Source: Candidatus Colwellbacteria bacterium CG10_big_fil_rev_8_21_14_0_10_42_22 (GTDB lineage: Bacteria; Patescibacteriota; Minisyncoccia; UBA6257; Colwellbacteraceae). From it: 64,000 nucleotides of DNA. A program made the translations under genes and the position numbers. The stretch covers positions 59,590-123,589 of the forward strand of contig PFAH01000002.1 in NCBI GenBank assembly GCA_002773725.1, read 5' to 3'. The notes beneath the pieces were generated by a model that saw only the letters and a program-made list of their open reading frames with translations, was not told the DNA's origin and made no database searches. The number at the start of each line of letters is the position of its first letter. Positions within the stretch are counted from its first letter, which is position 1. Shown piece after piece: positions 2,368-25,135 of the stretch.

Positions 2368-3848
<1,481 letters not shown>

Positions 3849-4114
3849 ATTAATTCTCTCTGAAGTTGAGCTCCAAAGGGAATAGACTTTGTCTACCTAA
3901 TGTAGATCTACCTGCCGATGGGCAGGTTTGGGACAACTAAAAAGCGTTCTGCTTTTTCTATAAGAAAATTCCACCTCTACAAAAGCTTATATATTTTGCC
4001 GAAGGGGCATAAGCATCTGTAGAGGTGGAACCTCTATTTCTTAAAGTTCTCGTATGTCAGTTGTCTTTATGGCTGTTCCATAATGTATAACAATTCATAA
4101 CCGACCGTCTCCAT

Positions 4115-4286: not shown

Positions 4287-6791
4287 TTACACTAGTGCGG
4301 CAGACCTTTTGTCACGTCCAGCGACAAAGTAACGAACTGCAAAGTAGATCAAGAGGATGAGTAAGAACAGCCACAAGATCGGGCTCGTGAAGAAATCACG
4401 CAAGCTGTCTAGAAGTAAAGCGGTGAAAGTTCCGCCAACCCTACCGCTAATCAACTCTCCAAAAGTGTGTTCGTCAATAACGGTCACAACTTTACGAGTT
4501 CCGCTGTCTGTGTATTCCACGTCAGCAGTAAAGCGGATAGTGTCATTTACATCGACACTGTTGCTTACCTCTGTGGTAATCACGAATGAATCTTGTTCGT
4601 CCGGACTGATGGTGCCGATATTAAATGTCAGCACATCATTTCGGTCATTGTCGGCATTCGGATCTGCATCAACGAAATCAAGCTCACGAGGGAGATCAAC
4701 TAACAGTTGTGCATCGGTGAAGGTTTCATCGGTGCGATTCTCGTAAGAAACTGTGTAGCTAATCTCGCGACTATCCTCAGCGCCGATTCTGTCAGCGTCA
4801 AGGGTAATTATGAGAGCTTCTATTTCTGGCTCTTCTTCTACTTCAACCGTCCTGAAAACTTCAACAATTCGGGTAACTACGTTTACTATCGGAGCTCCAG
4901 TACGGAAACTTCTAACAAAACCGTAGTCGGTACCCTCACTGTTTCTAGCTACAGCGCGGTAGTAGTAAGTAGTTTGAGAAGCGAGACCGGTGATTCTGTA
5001 GTCGAAATCGATATTATCGTTATCGCCTATATCATCGCGAGAGGTCTCCCTGTTAAGATTAGAGACACTAGTGCCCCATTGGAACCACACATCTGTGTCG
5101 TTACCATTGGCATCAACATCGCCCTCTAGAGTAGCTTCGTTTTGTCCAACTCCAGTCGGAGCCAAAGTAGTTACATCGGGCCCTTCGTCAGATGAACTTC
5201 CACCGTTTTCGTCTGTAGTAAAGCTTCTAGTAGAACCCTCATCTTCCTCACCACCGTCATCTTCTATAAAACAACGGAAGTAATACTTAGTGTCCTCGTC
5301 GAGACCAGAAATGATCTTTGTAACTATTTCATTTGTCTCTCCATCTTGAACACTTATTTTAGAGGTCTTTTCATCTAAGTCGGTGTCTTCACCCCACTCA
5401 AACCAAACATCGGCATCGTCGCCATTAGTATCAACTTCACAGCGCAAACGGGCGCTATCTTCATCTATCCTATCGGCAGACAAGGTTGTGGCGCTTGGCT
5501 TGTCGCCTGATCCACCGCCGTTATCGTCTGTAGTGAAGTTCAAAATATTACCCCTGTCTGTGCCTTCGCTATTTTTAGCTACACAGCGGAAGTAATACTT
5601 AGTGTCCTCATCCAAGTCGTCAATGTCTATTTCAACTCTTTCGTTAGTTTCATCAGCATCAACATCAACCTTAGATGTGTCTTCATCGAGATCATCGTCG
5701 TCCTCGCCCCACTCAAACCAAACTTCAGTATCATTGCCATTAGCATCTACATCACAACGCAAGGTTGCACTATCTTCGTCTACGTCAGTAGCAGAGACAG
5801 TAGTTGCCTCGGGCGCGTCTTCTGTTGGTCCGGGATCGTCATCGTCTGTAGTGAAGTTCAAAATATTACCCCTGTCTGTGCCTTCGCTATTTTTAGCTAC
5901 ACAGCGGAAGTAATACTTAGTGTCTTCGTCGAGACCGGTAGCAACTCTAGTAAAAGAGAAGGTGTCATTGTTCTTGCCAATAATTCTTACACTGGTCTCT
6001 TTATTTAAGTTGTTGCTATTCTCACCGTACTCAAACCAAGCTTCTGTGTTGGCTCCATTGGGGTCAACATCACAATGCAATGTAGCACTGTTTCTATCTA
6101 CGTTTGTAGCAGAGACAGTGGTGGCTTCGGGTGCACCCCCTGTTGGTCCAGGATTCTCGTCACCATTAACCCTGAAACTAACTACGACGAAGCCAGCGTT
6201 TCTCTCGCCGGGCTTAATATTCCCGACTGAAAGACCGCTACTATCAAGCACGTCCTCTGGGTCGCCCGAGAGAGGAACTTCGTGCACTGGGTTCCAGTGA
6301 GTGGTCTGAACAGTAGCAAGATGATCCACATCTGTAATCTTTCCGTCTCCGGTTAAATTAACAACCACTGTTTCGGCTTTCTGGGGAGCGTTATTCGCCC
6401 AGATATAACCCCTGATAACCACTTTGCGACCATCAGATGAAATAGTCGGATATATCCTCACTTTGGCACCGTTGGCTCTATCGTCACCGGTATTATTGAA
6501 AAATAATACGGCAGCAACTTTATCACCAAGTTCGGCGTTTACGCTTTGATTTTGCCAATTATAGGTTCCTCCTTGATTAGTGGAGCTCCCTACTCGTAGA
6601 AAATCATAAGGTTGAGAGCCCTGATTAAATACGGCAGCGGCGAAAACGGTGTTAATCAACGGTAGCGCTAAGTTAGCTGCCACAAATAAACCAGTTACAA
6701 TGGCTATCAATCCTTTTCTTTGACCTTTTAACAAATTAGTCATTTGTTTTTTGTATTTATTTTTAACCTTTATGCGAGCTTTATTACCCAC
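4287..6791 (-). CDS. Large acidic cell-surface repeat protein with N-terminal signal anchor, four tandem ~106-aa repeats and a C-terminal TM plus basic tail
   Basis: 834 aa. N-terminal hydrophobic segment GLIAIVTGLFVAANLALPLINTVFA. Repeats of ...ATTVSATxVDxxSATLxCDVDxNGxDTEVWFEWGED...DTKYYFRCVAKNSEGTDRGNILNFTTDD (fibronectin-III/Ig-like feel). C-terminus ILWLFLLILLIYFAVRYFVAGRDKRSAALV. Confidence 0.65.
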   Translation of the reverse strand: MGNKARIKVKNKYKKQMTNLLKGQRKGLIAIVTGLFVAANLALPLINTVFAAAVFNQGSQPYDFLRVGSSTNQGGTYNWQNQSVNAELGDKVAAVLFFNNTGDDRANGAKVRIYPTISSDGRKVVIRGYIWANNAPQKAETVVVNLTGDGKITDVDHLATVQTTHWNPVHEVPLSGDPEDVLDSSGLSVGNIKPGERNAGFVVVSFRVNGDENPGPTGGAPEATTVSATNVDRNSATLHCDVDPNGANTEAWFEYGENSNNLNKETSVRIIGKNNDTFSFTRVATGLDEDTKYYFRCVAKNSEGTDRGNILNFTTDDDDPGPTEDAPEATTVSATDVDEDSATLRCDVDANGNDTEVWFEWGEDDDDLDEDTSKVDVDADETNERVEIDIDDLDEDTKYYFRCVAKNSEGTDRGNILNFTTDDNGGGSGDKPSATTLSADRIDEDSARLRCEVDTNGDDADVWFEWGEDTDLDEKTSKISVQDGETNEIVTKIISGLDEDTKYYFRCFIEDDGGEEDEGSTRSFTTDENGGSSSDEGPDVTTLAPTGVGQNEATLEGDVDANGNDTDVWFQWGTSVSNLNRETSRDDIGDNDNIDFDYRITGLASQTTYYYRAVARNSEGTDYGFVRSFRTGAPIVNVVTRIVEVFRTVEVEEEPEIEALIITLDADRIGAEDSREISYTVSYENRTDETFTDAQLLVDLPRELDFVDADPNADNDRNDVLTFNIGTISPDEQDSFVITTEVSNSVDVNDTIRFTADVEYTDSGTRKVVTVIDEHTFGELISGRVGGTFTALLLDSLRDFFTSPILWLFLLILLIYFAVRYFVAGRDKRSAALV
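5165..6125. repeat. Tandem near-identical DNA repeats (period about 318 bp, 3+ copies) inside the surface-protein gene
   Basis: Identical about 75-nt blocks (gtgaagttcaaaatattacccctgtctgtgccttcgctatttttagctacacagcggaagtaatacttagtgtc) start at 5533 and 5851; related copies occur near 5270 and 5908. Confidence 0.7.
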
Positions 6792-20364: not shown

Positions 20365-21900
20365 CTATTTCACAAAGTATTTCTCTTTGATAGCGTCGTC
20401 AAGGCGGTCTTGTGCTTCTCTTGCCATCTCTTTTGCTTTGTCGGCCATCTTCTTTAACTTATTTTCGTCCATTTCCATAAGCTCTCGCGCTCTTTTAAGA
20501 AGCGCCTCTTCCGTATTAAGCTCCGGGCTATCCAAAACCTCTTCTAATAAAATCGCTAAAACATACCCCATTTGAGGACCGGGCTTCATACCCACTTCGT
20601 TCATAAGAACTTTCCCATCTATTTTTAATTGCTTCACGCCAACCGGCTCTTTCTTAGCCATCTCTATTTTGGCTTGTAAATCACGGAGGCGATATGGTTG
20701 AGCTTTAGGGACTCCTGAACCTATACGATCTGCTTCACGCAGTTTAACAAGATCATCTATATTCTCTACGCCCACTCTTCTTAAAAGACGTCTCACGCCC
20801 TTCTCCGTCACCACTTCGGGATCATAAACAAACATATGCTCACGCACTAAAAGAGCTACTTTTTTAATCATCTCTTTCGGGAACTTCAGGCGATTCATAA
20901 CTTCCTTAACTATCTTTTCTCCCAAGTATTGATGCTGATAAAAAGTCCAATCACCCTTTTTACCTTTCTTCGTTCTATCGCCTCTGGGGTCATCTTTCCA
21001 TTCACGTGTTCCAACCTTTCCAATGTCATGAAGAAGTGAGGATATGCGTAAATGAAGAGGAAATCCTTTTTCTACTGCGTATTCCAAAGCCCTCACGTTG
21101 TGTTCAAATACCGTATATATATGATGTTTGTTTTGCTCCATCCCCACCCCCTCTTGAAGCTCAGGTATCACTTGTTCTAAAAGCCCGACTTCCGACATCA
21201 ATCGAATCCCACCTCCCGCCCCATCTGTCATTAAAAGTTTTATTAATTCATCCCGTATTCTTTCGGGCGCTATTTCCGCCAAAGTTTCTGCCTGTTTTTG
21301 AATGGCCTTTTTTGTTTTTGCTTCAATATCAAACCCAAAACGAGCAGCAAACCTAACCGCCCTCATCATTCTCAAAGAATCCTCACCGAACCTATCCTCA
21401 GGACTACCCACCGCTTTAATGATGCCGGCCCTAATATCAGCTTGTCCACCATACGGGTCTATGATGATTTGCTCGTCCGACACGATGTCCAGGGCGATAG
21501 CGTTCATCGTAAAATCTCTACGCGAAAGATCTTCTTCAATCGTGTCTGTGAACTCCACCGCATCGGGATGTCTATGGTCTGAATAACTATTTTCTTTCCT
21601 AAAGGTGGTTACTTCGACTATGTCTAGTCCTTCTTCTTCGGAACCCGTCTTCACTAACACGGTTCCAAACTCATTTTCATAAACGCTCTCGGGGAAAATT
21701 TCTTGAATATCTTTCGGTTTAGCGCTCGTCGCGATATCCCAATCCTTAGGATTTTCTCCCATCAAAAAATCCCTCACGCATCCACCAACTAAATATGCTG
21801 AAAAACCAGCCTCTTTAAGAGCTTTTGCAAGTTCTTTAACTTCTTGAGGTAGTTCCATAGAAGTTTCTGATTCCCACAATTTACGTTCTCCTTTCATTAT
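20365..21900 (-). CDS. cca: CCA-adding enzyme (tRNA nucleotidyltransferase with HD domain). The start is probably at the internal Met (21900 or 21858), not 21990.
   Basis: ...GFSAYLVGGCVRDFLMGENPKDWDIATSA... (Pol-beta NT head), ...RDFTMNA..., an HD motif (...LLHDIGK...) and a C-terminal tRNA-binding region. The annotated N-terminus at 21990 would overlap the tRNA-like fragment. Confidence 0.8.
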   Translation of the reverse strand: MMKGERKLWESETSMELPQEVKELAKALKEAGFSAYLVGGCVRDFLMGENPKDWDIATSAKPKDIQEIFPESVYENEFGTVLVKTGSEEEGLDIVEVTTFRKENSYSDHRHPDAVEFTDTIEEDLSRRDFTMNAIALDIVSDEQIIIDPYGGQADIRAGIIKAVGSPEDRFGEDSLRMMRAVRFAARFGFDIEAKTKKAIQKQAETLAEIAPERIRDELIKLLMTDGAGGGIRLMSEVGLLEQVIPELQEGVGMEQNKHHIYTVFEHNVRALEYAVEKGFPLHLRISSLLHDIGKVGTREWKDDPRGDRTKKGKKGDWTFYQHQYLGEKIVKEVMNRLKFPKEMIKKVALLVREHMFVYDPEVVTEKGVRRLLRRVGVENIDDLVKLREADRIGSGVPKAQPYRLRDLQAKIEMAKKEPVGVKQLKIDGKVLMNEVGMKPGPQMGYVLAILLEEVLDSPELNTEEALLKRARELMEMDENKLKKMADKAKEMAREAQDRLDDAIKEKYFVK

Positions 21901-21921
21901 ATATGAGATTAATTTATACGG

Positions 21922-21982
21922 TCCGCGCGGGAGGAATCGAACCTCCAACCTTCTCCTTAAGAGGGAGCTGCTCTGCCGATTG
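21922..21982 (-). pseudogene. tRNA-Lys(CTT)-like 3' two-thirds (anticodon arm, T-arm, acceptor 3' strand) lacking a matching 5' acceptor and D-stem
   Basis: Reverse complement ...CAATCGGCAGAGCAGCTCCCTCTTAAGGAGAAGGTTGGAGGTTCGATTCCTCCCGCGCGGA parallels the neighbouring intact tRNA-Lys from the D-loop onward. No CCGCGCG / GCTC partner was found upstream; the 5' side is occupied by a 28-bp palindrome. Confidence 0.4.
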
Positions 21983-21983
21983 T

Positions 21984-22011
21984 CCGCCAAAGGCGGATCC
22001 GCCTTTGGCGG
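21984..22011. repeat. Perfect 28-bp palindrome CCGCCAAAGGCGGA|TCCGCCTTTGGCGG centred on GGATCC
   Basis: Read directly. Each half is itself a hairpin (CCGCC-AAA-GGCGG). Confidence 0.8.
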
Positions 22012-22031
22012 AAGCTATTCAACGCACGCTG

Positions 22032-22104
22032 TCCGTCTCCTGGGAATCGAACCCAGAACCTTCGGCTTAAGAGGCCGCTGCTCTGCCAGTTGAGCTAGAG
22101 ACGG
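22032..22104 (-). tRNA. tRNA-Lys (anticodon CTT)
   Basis: Reverse complement CCGTCTCTAGCTCAACTGGCAGAGCAGCGGCCTCTTAAGCCGAAGGTTCTGGGTTCGATTCCCAGGAGACGGA has a 7-bp acceptor, GCTC/GAGC D-stem, CTCTTAA anticodon loop and TTCGATT T-loop. Confidence 0.8.
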
Positions 22105-22105
22105 A

Positions 22106-22180
22106 TGGTGTCCCCGGAGGGATTCGAACCCCCAACGGCTGGTTCGAAGCCAGCAATGATATCCATTTCACCACGGGGAC
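22106..22180 (-). tRNA. tRNA-Arg (anticodon TCG), CCA encoded
   Basis: Reverse complement GTCCCCGTGGTGAAATGGATATCATTGCTGGCTTCGAACCAGCCGTTGGGGGTTCGAATCCCTCCGGGGACACCA. It lies 1 nt from tRNA-Lys. The ORF 22105-22491+ is spurious. Confidence 0.8.
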
Positions 22181-22264
22181 AAACGATGTTCCCGCAAGCA
22201 ATCGCGCCACGGGGACTTTGGCTTCGCGCATTCACGATAGCAAAATCCCATACTACTAATCAAT

Positions 22265-22621
22265 ACAAAACACCCCGACTTGGGTCGGGGCGTTTTGGTT
22301 TCCACTCGGTGCCTTCTCTCATGAGTCTGCGAAGGGGGGTTCGCGGACTCATGAGAGAAGCGGAGAGAGGACGAACGAGATTATCATTCGTTCCCTCTCC
22401 GTTGAAGTTTGTGGGGTGGTGGATGGACGTTAATCCACTGCGCTTTGACGCCAAGCAGGCGTGGGAGAACTTGTTCCCACAGGGACCATAACTAGCGTGT
22501 GGTCGTAACCACACGGCGCTCTAGCCGTCCTCTATCCACCACCCCGGCTAATTAATCCGAATATTCAGATGAATTAGTCGAAGTAGTGGAGCCACTCCAT
22601 CGTTTCAAATTTTCAGGGTAC
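22265..22621 (-). ncRNA. Candidate structured RNA of about 350 nt and unknown class, running from a consensus promoter to an intrinsic terminator (hairpin 22274-22290 plus U-tract)
   Basis: Contains a 12+5-bp closing helix (GGGGUGGUGGAU...GGACG / CGUCC...AUCCACCACCCC, 22413-22547) enclosing a multi-branch junction with two internal hairpins. Two further long hairpins follow (22318-22366 and about 22370-22410), then CCCCGAC-ccaa-GUCGGGG-UGUUUUG. The only long ORF (22260-22514, GTG start, 84 aa) runs through the hairpins into the terminator and is not protein-like. Confidence 0.45.
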
Positions 22622-22627
22622 ACGTGC

Positions 22628-22656
22628 ATTATAACACAAGATATCCATTTTGTCAA
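22628..22656 (-). promoter_or_regulatory. Perfect consensus promoter: TTGACA - 17 nt - (TGT)TATAAT on the minus strand
   Basis: Reverse complement of 22626-22660 is GGTGTTGACAAAATGGATATCTTGTGTTATAATGC: -35 and -10 hexamers both match consensus, the spacer is 17 nt, and TGn (extended -10) is present. Confidence 0.6.
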
Positions 22657-22692
22657 CACCTCTACTCTTTGCTCTCTATTCTCCAACAAAAA

Positions 22693-22712
22693 CCGCCCCA
22701 CATGGGGCGGAT
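22693..22712 (-). terminator. Intrinsic terminator of the 22735-23067 gene (CCGCCCCA-catg-TGGGGCGG then TTTTTGTTGG on minus)
   Basis: Read directly. Confidence 0.6.
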
Positions 22713-22734
22713 GTCTTTCTATATTAAGAGTTTC

Positions 22735-23067
22735 TTAAGAAAGAATATCTCTCATCGCCAACATCTCGTTTCTCAACCTGTCATTTAGGTCATCGTAAAA
22801 AGTCGGCATAGCAGAAGCATAAAGCTCTATTTTTTCTTCCATCTCCTCCGGCCTAGCCATTGATTCTTTTAAGTCCTTAAGTTGTTCGGTGGTTAACCTA
22901 TTAAGAAGCGTGTCTAGCACAATATCGTCAAAGTGGTCCCTGATTTTTTCTGCTAACACTTTTTTCTTTTTTTCATCAAGGCCCCGTAATTCAGAACTAT
23001 CAAGCACAACTGCTATCATGCTATCAAAGTATCTTTGTACATTTTTTTCTGTTAAATCTTCTGTCAT
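22735..23067 (-). CDS. Hypothetical small alpha-helical acidic protein
   Basis: 110 aa with no recognisable motif. It is adjacent (2-nt gap) to the upstream 688-aa gene and followed by a terminator. Confidence 0.5.
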   Translation of the reverse strand: MTEDLTEKNVQRYFDSMIAVVLDSSELRGLDEKKKKVLAEKIRDHFDDIVLDTLLNRLTTEQLKDLKESMARPEEMEEKIELYASAMPTFYDDLNDRLRNEMLAMRDILS

Positions 23068-23068
23068 A

Positions 23069-25135
23069 TTAAGATGATTTTTCCGTTAATATTTCTAATA
23101 AGGTCGCCCTTGTTCTAGCTCCAAAATTCATTTCATAACCAACAGGTATCGCTCTGTGGTCAACCCAATTTTCTCCCGTTACACCCGCTTCTGGCCAAGC
23201 AATCTTAGAATCCATACAAAGCGCCCTATCTATCCTTGCAATATCTGCATTCGTAAAATTACCTTCTCCGAAGAATTGGTCTAACCATTTGTGGCTCTCA
23301 TTCCATGGGTTAGACCCCTCCATCAAAGAAAAGTTTCTTGGCAACATGCCGATGGTCTCCGGGATACCATCCATGGCGCTAAGAGCATCTTCTCCCGAAG
23401 CTAATTCGTGCATAAACCCGTTCATACCCGACATATCTAGGGCCCTACTACCAGTGAATATCTCATCTGCACCAGCCGGACCGTATATCTGATCAAGTCC
23501 CAAACCATTGCCTTCCATCACTTCAGATAAAGCGCCTTGAAACTCTAATGGTGTCGGTTCTACGCCATTAACGTCTACAAAGTATTCTCTGACGGCATCT
23601 GCTATCGAGCTACCCTCGGGAACGTCAACGCTAGCAAGCTCTCCTTGAAGAGGAATATATTCCGGAACACCAGCAAGCCCACCATCGGCACCAATATCAA
23701 TTATCGATTCTCCGGTTCCTGGAACACCAGCAATCTCCCCAGGATCAATACCACTCCCATCAGGCACACCAGCATCTCCAACCTCAATTACAATTGGGTT
23801 AGGACTACTGGTAGCTTCGGCCTCGCCTAAAAGGCCCAACTTCTTACCCAAAGCTTCCGTTCCTTCATCAACCGCCGCTCCGCCAGCCCCCCTAATCGCC
23901 TCTATTACTTCTAATGCGGCTGCCGCTAAACCACCACCAACTGCTCCCCAAATAGCACCTCTTTTGGCTGCCTTTAATATCCTGGCTCTTGTTTCACCTT
24001 TAGCAGCTCGAATTTCTGCAATCAAAGCCATCCTTTCGGCGGTCTCTGGATCAATTTCAGGCGTGCTCTCTTCACCTCCTTCAATATCCATATCCCCCAT
24101 GGCATCAACCATGCTTTCGGGAGTTTCCAACTTACCCATCTTTTTACCCAAGGCCCAAAGGAGATGTCTACGCCTATCTCTAATATGTTCAACCGCCCTT
24201 ATTCTTTCCCGTGCCTCTGCTTCCTCAAGTTGTTTTTCTAAAAGCTTCAACTCATTTTTAATATCGACTTCTGATAATTCTCCTAAACCACCCTCACCTT
24301 CATTCAGTTCTTTAATAACTCTCCTACGAGCAAAAGTTTCTGAAACTCTTTCTCGAATTGCACCCGACGCATAGCCAGCTGCAGCACCACCACCAACTGC
24401 TCCAATAAAACCACCGAAGACAAAAAAGGCCGTTCTAGCTCCTCGACGAATAACCATTCTAGCGGCGCCACCGGCAACACCACCGGTCAAAAATTCCGTT
24501 ACGGGTTTACCAAAAATTTTAGTTTCTCCTAAACGAGCGCTTAGCTTGCCAAGAAAACCCTTTCCTTCTTTATCTGCCTCGGCTTCTTTTCTAAGGGCTT
24601 CTAATAAAAACTCTCTTAGCTCCTCCGGGTTTTCAGAACGAGAGCCCTTGCCACCCAAAAGTCGATATTGTGCTTTTAACAACTCCTCGTCTGTGGCTCT
24701 CTCTACCCACGCCTCCAGAACTTTGGCTCCTTTTTTATCAATTTGCTCCCGAAGCCTAGTGGTGCCTTTAATTCCTTCTAATAGTTCTCCGCGAACGGCT
24801 TCTTGCGTAGCGATATAATCATCGAGTGATTCTAATAATCTAGCCCTAATTTCTTCTGGATCACCCGTTAGAGCACCTTTGCCCACTAATCTACCTTTAG
24901 CAAAACGAGCTACATCTTCCGGGTTCAGCATGGCCAGGGTTTCTCGCCAACCCTTCAACGATTCTAAATCAGAATATTCCCTAGCTAGTCGTTTTTGATA
25001 TCCTGAACCTATCCTAAAAGCTGGACCCTCTGGTTCTTTCTCAACTTTCGGCTCTTCAGCCGGCTCTTCCAGGTCTAAACCTTCTTCTGTATCAGAATCC
25101 TCGCTCCTTCCTCTGAATTTATCGAAAAATCCCAT
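23069..25135 (-). CDS. Hypothetical large protein: acidic N-terminus, coiled-coil segments, two glycine-zipper-like hydrophobic segments, Gly/Asp-rich linker and a C-terminal globular domain
   Basis: 688 aa. AFFVFGGFIGAVGGGAAAGYASGAI and AIWGAVGGGLAAAALEVI are GxxxG-rich. Linker GVPDGSGIDPGEIAGVPGTGESIIDIGADGGLAGVPEYIP. C-terminus ...NPWNESHKWLDQFFGEGNF...WPEAGVTGENWVDHRAIPVGYEMNFGARTRA. Divergent from recG. Confidence 0.5.
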   Translation of the reverse strand: MGFFDKFRGRSEDSDTEEGLDLEEPAEEPKVEKEPEGPAFRIGSGYQKRLAREYSDLESLKGWRETLAMLNPEDVARFAKGRLVGKGALTGDPEEIRARLLESLDDYIATQEAVRGELLEGIKGTTRLREQIDKKGAKVLEAWVERATDEELLKAQYRLLGGKGSRSENPEELREFLLEALRKEAEADKEGKGFLGKLSARLGETKIFGKPVTEFLTGGVAGGAARMVIRRGARTAFFVFGGFIGAVGGGAAAGYASGAIRERVSETFARRRVIKELNEGEGGLGELSEVDIKNELKLLEKQLEEAEARERIRAVEHIRDRRRHLLWALGKKMGKLETPESMVDAMGDMDIEGGEESTPEIDPETAERMALIAEIRAAKGETRARILKAAKRGAIWGAVGGGLAAAALEVIEAIRGAGGAAVDEGTEALGKKLGLLGEAEATSSPNPIVIEVGDAGVPDGSGIDPGEIAGVPGTGESIIDIGADGGLAGVPEYIPLQGELASVDVPEGSSIADAVREYFVDVNGVEPTPLEFQGALSEVMEGNGLGLDQIYGPAGADEIFTGSRALDMSGMNGFMHELASGEDALSAMDGIPETIGMLPRNFSLMEGSNPWNESHKWLDQFFGEGNFTNADIARIDRALCMDSKIAWPEAGVTGENWVDHRAIPVGYEMNFGARTRATLLEILTEKSS

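Follow-up and report, generated by a model that had tools for sequence, protein, structure and literature searches.

We analyzed a structured RNA that had been predicted on the minus strand of a 64-kb stretch of contig PFAH01000002.1 from a Candidatus Colwellbacteria bacterium (the complete stretch is here referred to as the window), just upstream of a tRNA-Arg and a tRNA-Lys gene. Very probably the locus is the gene of an uncatalogued, clade-restricted small RNA (sRNA) found in a narrow clade of Colwellbacteria-like Patescibacteria. Judged from its sequence, it would be a stand-alone gene on the minus strand that is transcribed independently into a non-coding RNA of about 360 nt. The working part of the putative RNA is best explained as a conserved 3' module, which consists of two hairpins (here named D and E), the linker GCACCGAGUGG and the terminator. 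As its function we tentatively propose that of a trans-acting riboregulator.

The genomes of Patescibacteria, also referred to as candidate phyla radiation (CPR), are tiny, and most of these organisms have not been cultivated. There appears to be very little knowledge of the regulatory and structural RNAs of this group, and a search of the literature on structured RNAs or sRNAs of CPR/Patescibacteria found nothing relevant. The locus represents a clean and well-bounded case, in which the strongest promoter of the 64 kb is combined with a 3' module that covaries and a 5' domain that evolves fast.

Promoter, terminator and overall fold

The initial annotation had described a perfect promoter at 22628-22656 and a scan of promoter motifs recovered it as stated. 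The -35 hexamer TTGACA is located at 22651..22656 and is followed at a spacing of 17 nt by the extended -10 element TGTTATAAT (22628..22636); like all features of the RNA gene given below, both are on the minus strand. The promoter scored 12/12 as a sigma-70 match and additionally carried the TG of an extended -10. It was the sole 12/12 promoter in the whole window, and the next best ones, including the promoter candidate of the 16S gene, reached 11/12. According to our own arithmetic, approximately 0.02 matches of 12/12 with a spacing of 16–18 nt are expected by chance in 128 kb, and approximately 0.0015 if the TG is included.

Upstream, the gene is bounded by the terminator hairpin of a gene for a 110-aa protein (22687..22710), in which CCGCCCCATGTGGGGCGG with seven G-C pairs is followed by TTTTTG. 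A GUAC motif (22618..22621) was present 7–14 nt past the -10 element in six of the seven full-length sequences of the family described below, and the transcription start would be placed here, at approximately 22621 ± 3. At the other end an intrinsic terminator was found at 22261..22297, near the place where the GC hairpin and U-tract had been noted before. It comprises a 14-bp G+C-rich hairpin (22297-22266) and the U-rich tract UUUUGUAUUG extending to 22261. The distance from the promoter to the terminator hairpin is approximately 330 nt. The exact ends of the transcript as well as its high abundance are inferred.

The 361 nt from promoter to terminator had a minimum free energy (MFE) of -173.4 kcal/mol compared with -108 ± 6 kcal/mol for dinucleotide shuffles (z = -10.9), and none of 100 shuffles equalled this value. 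Considering the promoter odds, the shuffle statistics and the fold, the features are real and well beyond chance.

The variable 5' domain (22401..22617) is composed of two small hairpins (22598-22585 and 22577-22548) and a multibranch domain. The latter is closed by a 12-bp helix, GGGGUGGUGGAU/AUCCACCACCCC (22545-22534 with 22424-22413), and a GGACG/CGUCC helix lies inside it; both the MFE and the centroid structure of the window showed this closure. For the 266 nt located 5' of hairpin E (22627-22362, hairpin D included) a z-score of -7.4 was obtained.

Homologues and the conserved 3' module

The gene of the CCA-adding enzyme (Pfam) is located downstream of the RNA and was used to fetch 24 loci from Colwell-, Harrison- and Wolfebacteria and other metagenome-assembled genomes (MAGs) of Patescibacteria. 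Only two of them, L001 and L024, were similar to the RNA. The pattern GAACCCCCCTTC-N12-24-CACCGAGTGG, derived from the motifs invariant in L001 and L024, recovered five metagenome contigs (L025–L029), and L030 and L040, as well as the decayed copy in L045, were gained from contigs with the closest relatives of the CCA enzyme. The family sampled here therefore consists of the window (identical to L025), L001, L024, L026, L027 (identical to L028 and L032–36), L029, L030 and L040. L001 comprised the 3' half only, as it was ended by the contig end. In total, seven further homologues and one decayed remnant (L045) were found in related MAGs and metagenome contigs. The lengths from the -10 element to the end of the terminator were 188, 236, 244, 314, 329, 367 and 393 nt.

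The promoter was conserved within this family. All six full-length homologues carried TTGAC(A/T) as -35 element, and five of them a good and mostly TG-extended -10 element at a spacing of 17 nt (TGTTATATA, TGGTATATT, TGTTATATG, TTGTATATA and TGTTACTGT). In L024 approximately 17 nt of the promoter were lost and a weak TACGTA was left as -10. Including the window, the promoter is thus near consensus in six of the seven full-length sequences and the terminator, which all homologues retain, covaries, as expected for a stand-alone sRNA.

The final 105–113 nt of the RNA aligned easily, with a mean column identity of 84%. Here, the two long hairpins of the initial annotation were located at 22400-22362 and 22360-22313. 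In hairpin D (22362..22400), directly 5' of hairpin E, the 5' strand is rich in G/A and the 3' strand in C/U. Every homologue contained a hairpin whose 5' strand was GAGAGGGG(C/U)GG-like; covariation of this hairpin was weak, with one double change and several broken cells. Hairpin E (22313..22360) is a 20-bp helix with the apical sequence GAACCCCCCUUC at 22342-22331, which contains a CCCCCC loop (22339-22334). In this helix 96.3% of the cells were paired, and 8 of the 20 pairs had changes on both sides, while another 8 never varied. The terminator showed changes on both sides in 5 of its 14 pairs, with 96.4% of the cells paired. Taking hairpin E, linker and terminator as a whole, standard pairs accounted for 96.3% of the cells and 13 of 34 pairs were changed on both sides. 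This was reached by none of 500 shuffles, and sliding the 3' partners by 1–3 columns reduced the paired fraction to 35–51%.

The CCCCCC loop was identical in all eight sequences and wholly unpaired in every partition function; its closing A-U pair was broken in L030 alone. Within the stem of hairpin E (columns 20/37) a U.G wobble was found in seven of the eight sequences and a C.A pair in the window. Since C.A substitutions (A+.C-type) are isosteric with the wobble pair, this exchange suggests a recognition point that is specific for geometry. Hairpin E and the terminator are connected by the linker GCACCGAGUGGAAA (22299..22312), of which the 11 nt GCACCGAGUGG (22312-22302) were invariant in 8/8 sequences. 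The linker is read in other frames in the window and L001 than in the remaining sequences, so that the constraint acts at the nucleotide level. No consistent intramolecular partner of linker or loop, neither a pseudoknot nor a 5'-3' closing helix, was found: L030 offered CAUUCG-CGAGUG and the others different pairings or none. In four of the eight sequences, 169–200 of 200 shuffles did at least as well as the actual pairing between the linker and the 5' domain of the same molecule, which fits a linker that is kept free. The strand is fixed by the G.U pairs and by the scores of the covariance model, which were 106–131 bits in forward compared with approximately 26–41 bits in reverse orientation.

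The 5' domain was not conserved. Its length varied from 82 to 283 nt across the homologues, MAFFT was unable to align it, and no 6-mer was common to at least six of the seven full-length sequences. Between the window and L001 homology was undetectable upstream of approximately 22382, and the 3' strand of the 12-bp helix had no counterpart in L001, although L001 covers this region. The longer versions of the family were over-structured (z-scores from -3.9 to -7.4) and the shortest ones were not (-0.8 and -1.7), which suggests that the RNA became longer by the addition of stable hairpins. Hence, the multibranch domain is real in the window but specific to its lineage. The 12+5-bp closing helix around the junction at 22413-22547, on which the initial annotation had placed most emphasis, does exist, but comparison with relatives gave it no special importance, and an alignable counterpart is lacking even in the closest relative L001. 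What had seemed most striking is not what is conserved.

When 38 sources were searched with R1, a covariance model built from the 3' module, the RNA was detected in eight of them and the remnant was recovered as well; in approximately 29 relatives the equivalent locus was present without the RNA. The RNA was found only beside CCA-enzyme genes with at least 68% identity to that of the window. Weak matches occurred in L017, L008 and L018 (22–29 bits), and the two inspected (L017 and L008) were ordinary terminators. Searches for further homologues via P0001, P0005, P0008, P0010 and P0012 led to contigs that lacked the RNA or ended before it. The remnant in L045 (57.7 bits) was promoterless, had lost the 5' arm of hairpin E and carried two substitutions in the linker. 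The absence from the equivalent locus of so many relatives and the decay in L045 make it unlikely that the RNA is essential. A regulatory RNA that the cell can dispense with is more likely than a housekeeping RNA that had been missing, and the stable RNA of housekeeping type suggested before is unlikely. A phage origin was not indicated either, since there was no blastn match in INPHARED and no match of the pattern in IMG/VR. None of the repeat or mobile-element families of the window involved the locus and the RNA was single-copy.

The ancestral gene order appears to be recG (divergent), RNA, tRNA-Arg, tRNA-Lys and CCA enzyme. In the window two genes without Pfam match are inserted between recG and the RNA. 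More generally, such genes were inserted at varied points of this segment, namely at 23069-25135 and 22735-23067 (minus strand) of the window, at 2426-3556 of L033 and at 655-1392 of L001, and these lineage-specific insertions mark the locus as an insertion hot spot. Directly upstream of the -35 element of the sRNA in L027 (3083-3135, plus strand), an element resembling a type III hammerhead with an intact core CUGAUGA...GAAA was observed (32.4 bits with a gathering score of 48.5; E = 1.2e-5 in a local search). It was absent from the window.

Known RNA classes and the neighbouring tRNA genes

Comparison of the window with Rfam 15 by cmscan at gathering score detected only the 16S rRNA and four tRNAs, and none of these matches was located within 22261-22627. 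The families covered include RNase P, tmRNA, signal recognition particle (SRP) RNA, 6S, 5S, T-box, 6C, riboswitches and OLE/ROOL/GOLLD/raiA. A permissive search (E<=10) of 21850-22800 yielded, inside the RNA, just chance matches of miRNA or snoRNA type with 11–21 bits. For eight homologous loci Rfam matches were restricted to tRNAs. With ARAGORN, neither the window nor any of 24 related loci yielded a tmRNA, and no T-arm or ACCA end was visible. The initial statement that motifs of RNase P RNA, tmRNA, SRP RNA and 5S rRNA could not be found was thereby corroborated, as was the suggestion of a possibly undescribed RNA, since no Rfam family matched.

RNase P RNA and SRP RNA did not agree with the narrow distribution, the unalignable 5' two-thirds, the shortest member of 188 nt and the negative result of the Rfam search. 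With respect to 6S RNA, the MFE and centroid folds of seven homologues were serial hairpins with a separate terminator and showed no consistent 5'-3' pairing. 6C RNA was not indicated, as the RNA of 188–393 nt has one CCCCCC loop, no second C-rich loop and no match to RF01066. It is extremely improbable that a highly divergent universal RNA (RNase P RNA, tmRNA, SRP RNA or 6S RNA) was missed by the covariance models. The size of approximately 350 nt and the very strong promoter do recall rnpB or ssrA, but neither Rfam at E<=10 nor ARAGORN gave a match in searches that covered the window and the homologous loci (eight in the case of Rfam). Furthermore, the shortest member is made of four simple hairpins, only the 3' 110 nt are conserved, and the gene is missing in approximately 29 relatives and decayed in L045. 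No 5'-3' closing stem, T-arm/ACCA, P4 motifs, GNRA or symmetric-loop domain IV were present. The RNA fills no missing housekeeping function and belongs to the stand-alone sRNAs of bacteria, as an uncatalogued one.

In most members of the family tRNA-Arg(TCG) and tRNA-Lys(CUU) follow the RNA on the same strand. Between the terminator and tRNA-Arg of the window, and therefore outside the RNA, a promoter-like block TTGATT-18-TGCTATCGT is located (22234..22263, minus strand). As TTGA(AA/TT)-16/18-TG(C/T)TATCGTGA the block was kept in the window, L001, L024, L026, L029, L040 and L045 and was absent in L030, so that it was present wherever the tRNAs are in tandem. It probably drives tRNA-Arg and tRNA-Lys. 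The RNA is independent of the tRNAs.

That the RNA acts in cis as leader or attenuator of a unit of tRNA-Arg and tRNA-Lys (and the CCA enzyme), by regulated read-through or processing, is very unlikely. In the window, L001, L024, L026, L029 and L040 it is located 80–140 nt 5' of tRNA-Arg(TCG) in the same orientation, which would suit a leader, and in our own reading a UGGN motif in the linker recalls the T-box bulge. Like T-box RNAs, the RNA is structured, extends over 200–350 nt from promoter to terminator near tRNA-related genes and has UGGN 5' of the terminator. Unlike them, it lacks Stem I and specifier, showed no match to T-box or riboswitch models at E<=10, has no antiterminator that we could identify and is not consistently followed by a gene on the same strand. 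Both tRNAs of L030 are located on the opposite strand and abut the terminator, while in L027 an unrelated gene for a 376-aa protein is located between the RNA and the tRNAs. Furthermore, the RNA ends in a strong and covarying terminator, and the tRNAs have the promoter-like block of their own. Read-through into the tRNAs, raised in the initial annotation, is therefore not supported as the purpose of the RNA.

A third tRNA-Lys(CUU)-like gene was observed in the window at 21930-22030 (minus strand). Its anticodon and T arms are intact and it reached 24.6 bits, which is below the gathering score; the D-loop is split by the perfect 30-nt palindrome TCCGCCAAAGGCGGATCCGCCTTTGGCGGA (22012-21983). With default settings ARAGORN left it uncalled even with the palindrome removed, and it is probably a pseudogene. 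In L001 (approximately 300-605) and L040 (approximately 1044-1290) a tRNA-Arg(TCG) is split into a 5' and a 3' part by an insert holding another complete tRNA-Arg(TCG). At approximately 625-812 of L045, a long stem takes the place of the anticodon arm in a gene of tRNA-Lys type, and a complete tRNA-Lys(CUU) is enclosed by this stem. These split and nested genes could be invaded genes with a replacement copy or contain unusual introns. Group I introns have reportedly been described recently in tRNA genes of Patescibacteria and may bear on them.

The tRNA-Arg leader of the window contains GTCCCCGTGGCG (approximately 22216-22205, minus strand), which repeats the first 12 nt of tRNA-Arg (GTCCCCGTGGTG) approximately 25 nt ahead of the gene proper. 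L001 and L024 share this partial duplication, and short palindromes were inserted there in L029 and L040. The pattern resembles a footprint left by insertions that duplicated their target. We also considered whether the C6 loop or the linker pairs with the adjacent tRNAs and rejected this, as the 9-nt CGAACCCCC, which is antisense to the T-arm of tRNA-Arg, matched at the level of chance (38/200 shuffles).

Such a neighbourhood raises the question whether the RNA is a transcribed relic with little or no function, for example DNA of a mobile element or tRNA-derived fragment that was left in a rearrangement hot spot beside tRNAs, is maintained for some time by its strong promoter and drifts by hairpin insertions. 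Split or nested tRNAs, palindromes and inserted open reading frames (ORFs) in the window, L001, L029, L040 and L045 would fit a relic, as would the very narrow distribution, the quick turnover of the 5' domain with a fourfold length difference, the decay in L045 and the damaged -10 element of L024. The top of hairpin E is antisense to the tRNA-Arg T-arm, but this is the chance-level match just mentioned. Moreover, compensatory changes have preserved hairpin E and terminator across CCA enzymes of approximately 68–73% identity, loop and 11-nt linker stayed invariant amid diverged intergenic DNA, and the promoter is near consensus in all but one of the seven full-length sequences. The RNA is also single-copy, belongs to no repeat family of the window and is absent from viral contigs. 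Taken together, a relic is improbable.

Coding potential and putative function

The 84-codon ORF with GTG start, which had been judged not to be coding, was located at 22260-22514 and had no counterpart in the homologues, in line with that judgement. As the reading frame is not conserved, we regard the RNA as non-coding. The frame shift in the window, the early stop in L001 and the 13 pairs changed on both sides (0/500 shuffles) agree with this.

A messenger of a very small protein, with an ORF of 24–31 aa or a mini-ORF of 3–5 codons, is a highly improbable alternative. The ORF MSLRTPLRELMRG.HRVEKQNAP starts at an AUG inside hairpin E and is open in L024, L026, L027, L029, L030 and L040; in three of these six its stop codon is in the terminator loop (partly our own reading). 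In the window, however, a deletion of 1 nt shifts the frame of the invariant GCACCGAGUGG (GTEWK instead of HRVEK), and in L001 only three codons precede the stop (GTG AGT CTA TGA). The AUG is buried within the 20-bp helix and the substitutions of this region compensate the RNA helix and are not synonymous. The ORF was rejected because its frame is inconsistent among the sequences. Mini-ORFs after a GGAGG-like box were found in the 5' domain, encoding MHPV (L024 and L027), MHPP (L040) and MRLR (L026 and L029). Their peptides are not conserved across the family and the window has none at the equivalent place. Nor would the box be a ribosome-binding site here, since the genome shows no Shine-Dalgarno (SD) usage and no anti-SD sequence; a leader peptide with SD motif was therefore rejected as well.

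Concerning the latter, the 3' end of the 16S gene in the window (2373-2420, minus strand) reads ...GGAAGCUGUACGUGGAACAAUUAAACU (...GUACGUGGAACAAUUAAACU), and no GGAUCACCUCCUU/CCUCC anti-SD tail was present at this end or nearby. SD-like motifs ahead of the first start codon were lacking in almost all genes of the window, and several genes had TATAAT directly 5' of the ATG, suggesting leaderless mRNAs or mRNAs with very short leaders. On the loss of SD and anti-SD sequences in Patescibacteria nothing was found in the literature.

For the trans-acting riboregulator that we tentatively propose, the near-consensus promoter of sigma-70 type would drive a structured RNA of approximately 360 nt that is ended by the intrinsic terminator. 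Hairpin E would present its always-unpaired C6 loop, with the linker GCACCGAGUGG exposed beside it, and one or both may pair in trans with G-rich or complementary sites of target RNAs. The long helix and the terminator would supply stability. The 5' domain may consist of rapidly changing stabilising hairpins, which in the window would have grown into the multibranch domain of 130 nt.

Precedents exist for regulators of this kind. The C-rich loops of 6C RNA (RF01066; B11/6C of M. tuberculosis) serve as seed for G-rich sites of mRNAs without a chaperone (PMC6486639), and sX13 of Xanthomonas is an sRNA whose C-rich motifs pair with G-rich target sequences (PMC3771888). The RNA resembles 6C in being an independent sRNA with a conserved hairpin, a loop of at least six cytosines and a subsequent terminator. 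However, 6C RNAs are actinobacterial, have a length of 60–90 nt and carry two C-rich loops, whereas the RNA described here has 188–393 nt, its only C6 loop caps a 20-bp helix, and it adds a linker with 11 invariant nt and a 5' domain that is large and variable. It is an analogue at most and not a member. An exposed C-rich motif is also shared with the highly expressed RsaE/RoxS of Firmicutes and sX13. These have several CCCC motifs and mostly SD targets, in contrast to the genome studied here with neither SD nor anti-SD sequences, and showed no similarity to the RNA in sequence or by covariance model (cmscan, E<=10).

Several observations weigh against pairing in trans. Complements of loop and linker in the 64 kb were not beyond chance and no target was found there; the G-runs of the window were intragenic and showed no pattern of ribosome-binding sites. 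A second copy of ATCCACCACCCC at 1764-1775 was rejected as target, since repeated 12-mers are expected by chance (approximately 2.7 expected). As SD and anti-SD sequences appear to be missing, the G-rich ribosome-binding site, which is the usual target of C-rich loops, may not exist here. The predicted accessibility of the linker was moderate and varied among the sequences, and the family comprises only eight sequences of few lineages. In addition, a near-perfect 20-bp helix of strongly conserved sequence with a fixed wobble fits recognition by a protein or RNase III at least as well, and resembles such a recognition element more than a hairpin that presents a seed. Given the lack of a target in 64 kb and of a G-rich ribosome-binding site and a helix suited to a protein, trans-pairing, although favoured over the alternatives below and above, was rated somewhat below even odds.

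The RNA could instead bind a protein, as scaffold, decoy or sponge, or as RNase III substrate, with helix E, the wobble, the C6 loop and the linker as recognition sites and without pairing to mRNAs; we consider this somewhat unlikely. The stem of hairpin E is conserved beyond the needs of pairing (8/20 pairs invariant), the swap of the U.G present in 7/8 sequences for an isosteric C.A in the window is typical of a specific recognition point, and the 11-nt linker has no RNA partner in the molecule or the window. A very strong promoter would suit a stoichiometric binder. In this respect 6S RNA (ssrS) is comparable, being non-coding, highly structured, transcribed from a very strong promoter and presumably abundant, and it would be an analogue if the RNA binds a protein. 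Yet 6S is a widely conserved rod of approximately 180 nt, in which the 5' and 3' ends pair to close the molecule around a central bubble, and the fold found here is unlike it: a string of hairpins with its own terminator and twofold length variation in a small clade. Repeated motifs of CsrB/RsmZ type are absent as well. Furthermore, no conserved partner gene adjoins the RNA, as recG is divergent in L024, L026 and L030 and unrelated genes without Pfam match are located upstream in the window, L029, L040 and L027.

Going beyond this, the RNA might be the first representative of an as yet undescribed class of structured RNAs that are abundant in Colwellbacteria-like Patescibacteria and part of a ribonucleoprotein, with helix, wobble, C6 loop and GCACCGAGUGG as a module for protein docking, which we rate as quite improbable. 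Such a role might be connected with peculiarities of translation and of the tRNAs in these cells, i.e. the lack of anti-SD, of SD motifs or leaders, and the rearranged tRNA genes.

The covariance model of the RNA can be used to search MAG collections and the locus can be checked in existing metatranscriptomes. If the RNA is abundant, it would offer a handle on post-transcriptional control in a lineage where SD-based initiation seems to be lost. If not, it would be one more lineage-specific sRNA.

Some further features of the window were observed. The 16S gene is bracketed by a perfect 21-nt inverted repeat (2247-2267 and 3928-3948), which is probably a processing stem of the precursor. The 23S rRNA was not found in the 2.3 kb downstream (1-2372), where ORFs are located instead, so that the 16S gene appears to be unlinked from the 23S gene. 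An ORF of 834 aa (4287-6791, minus strand) contains four tandem repeats of approximately 318 nt at 5070-6161 with 61–97% identity, which encode an internally repeated domain of approximately 106 aa.

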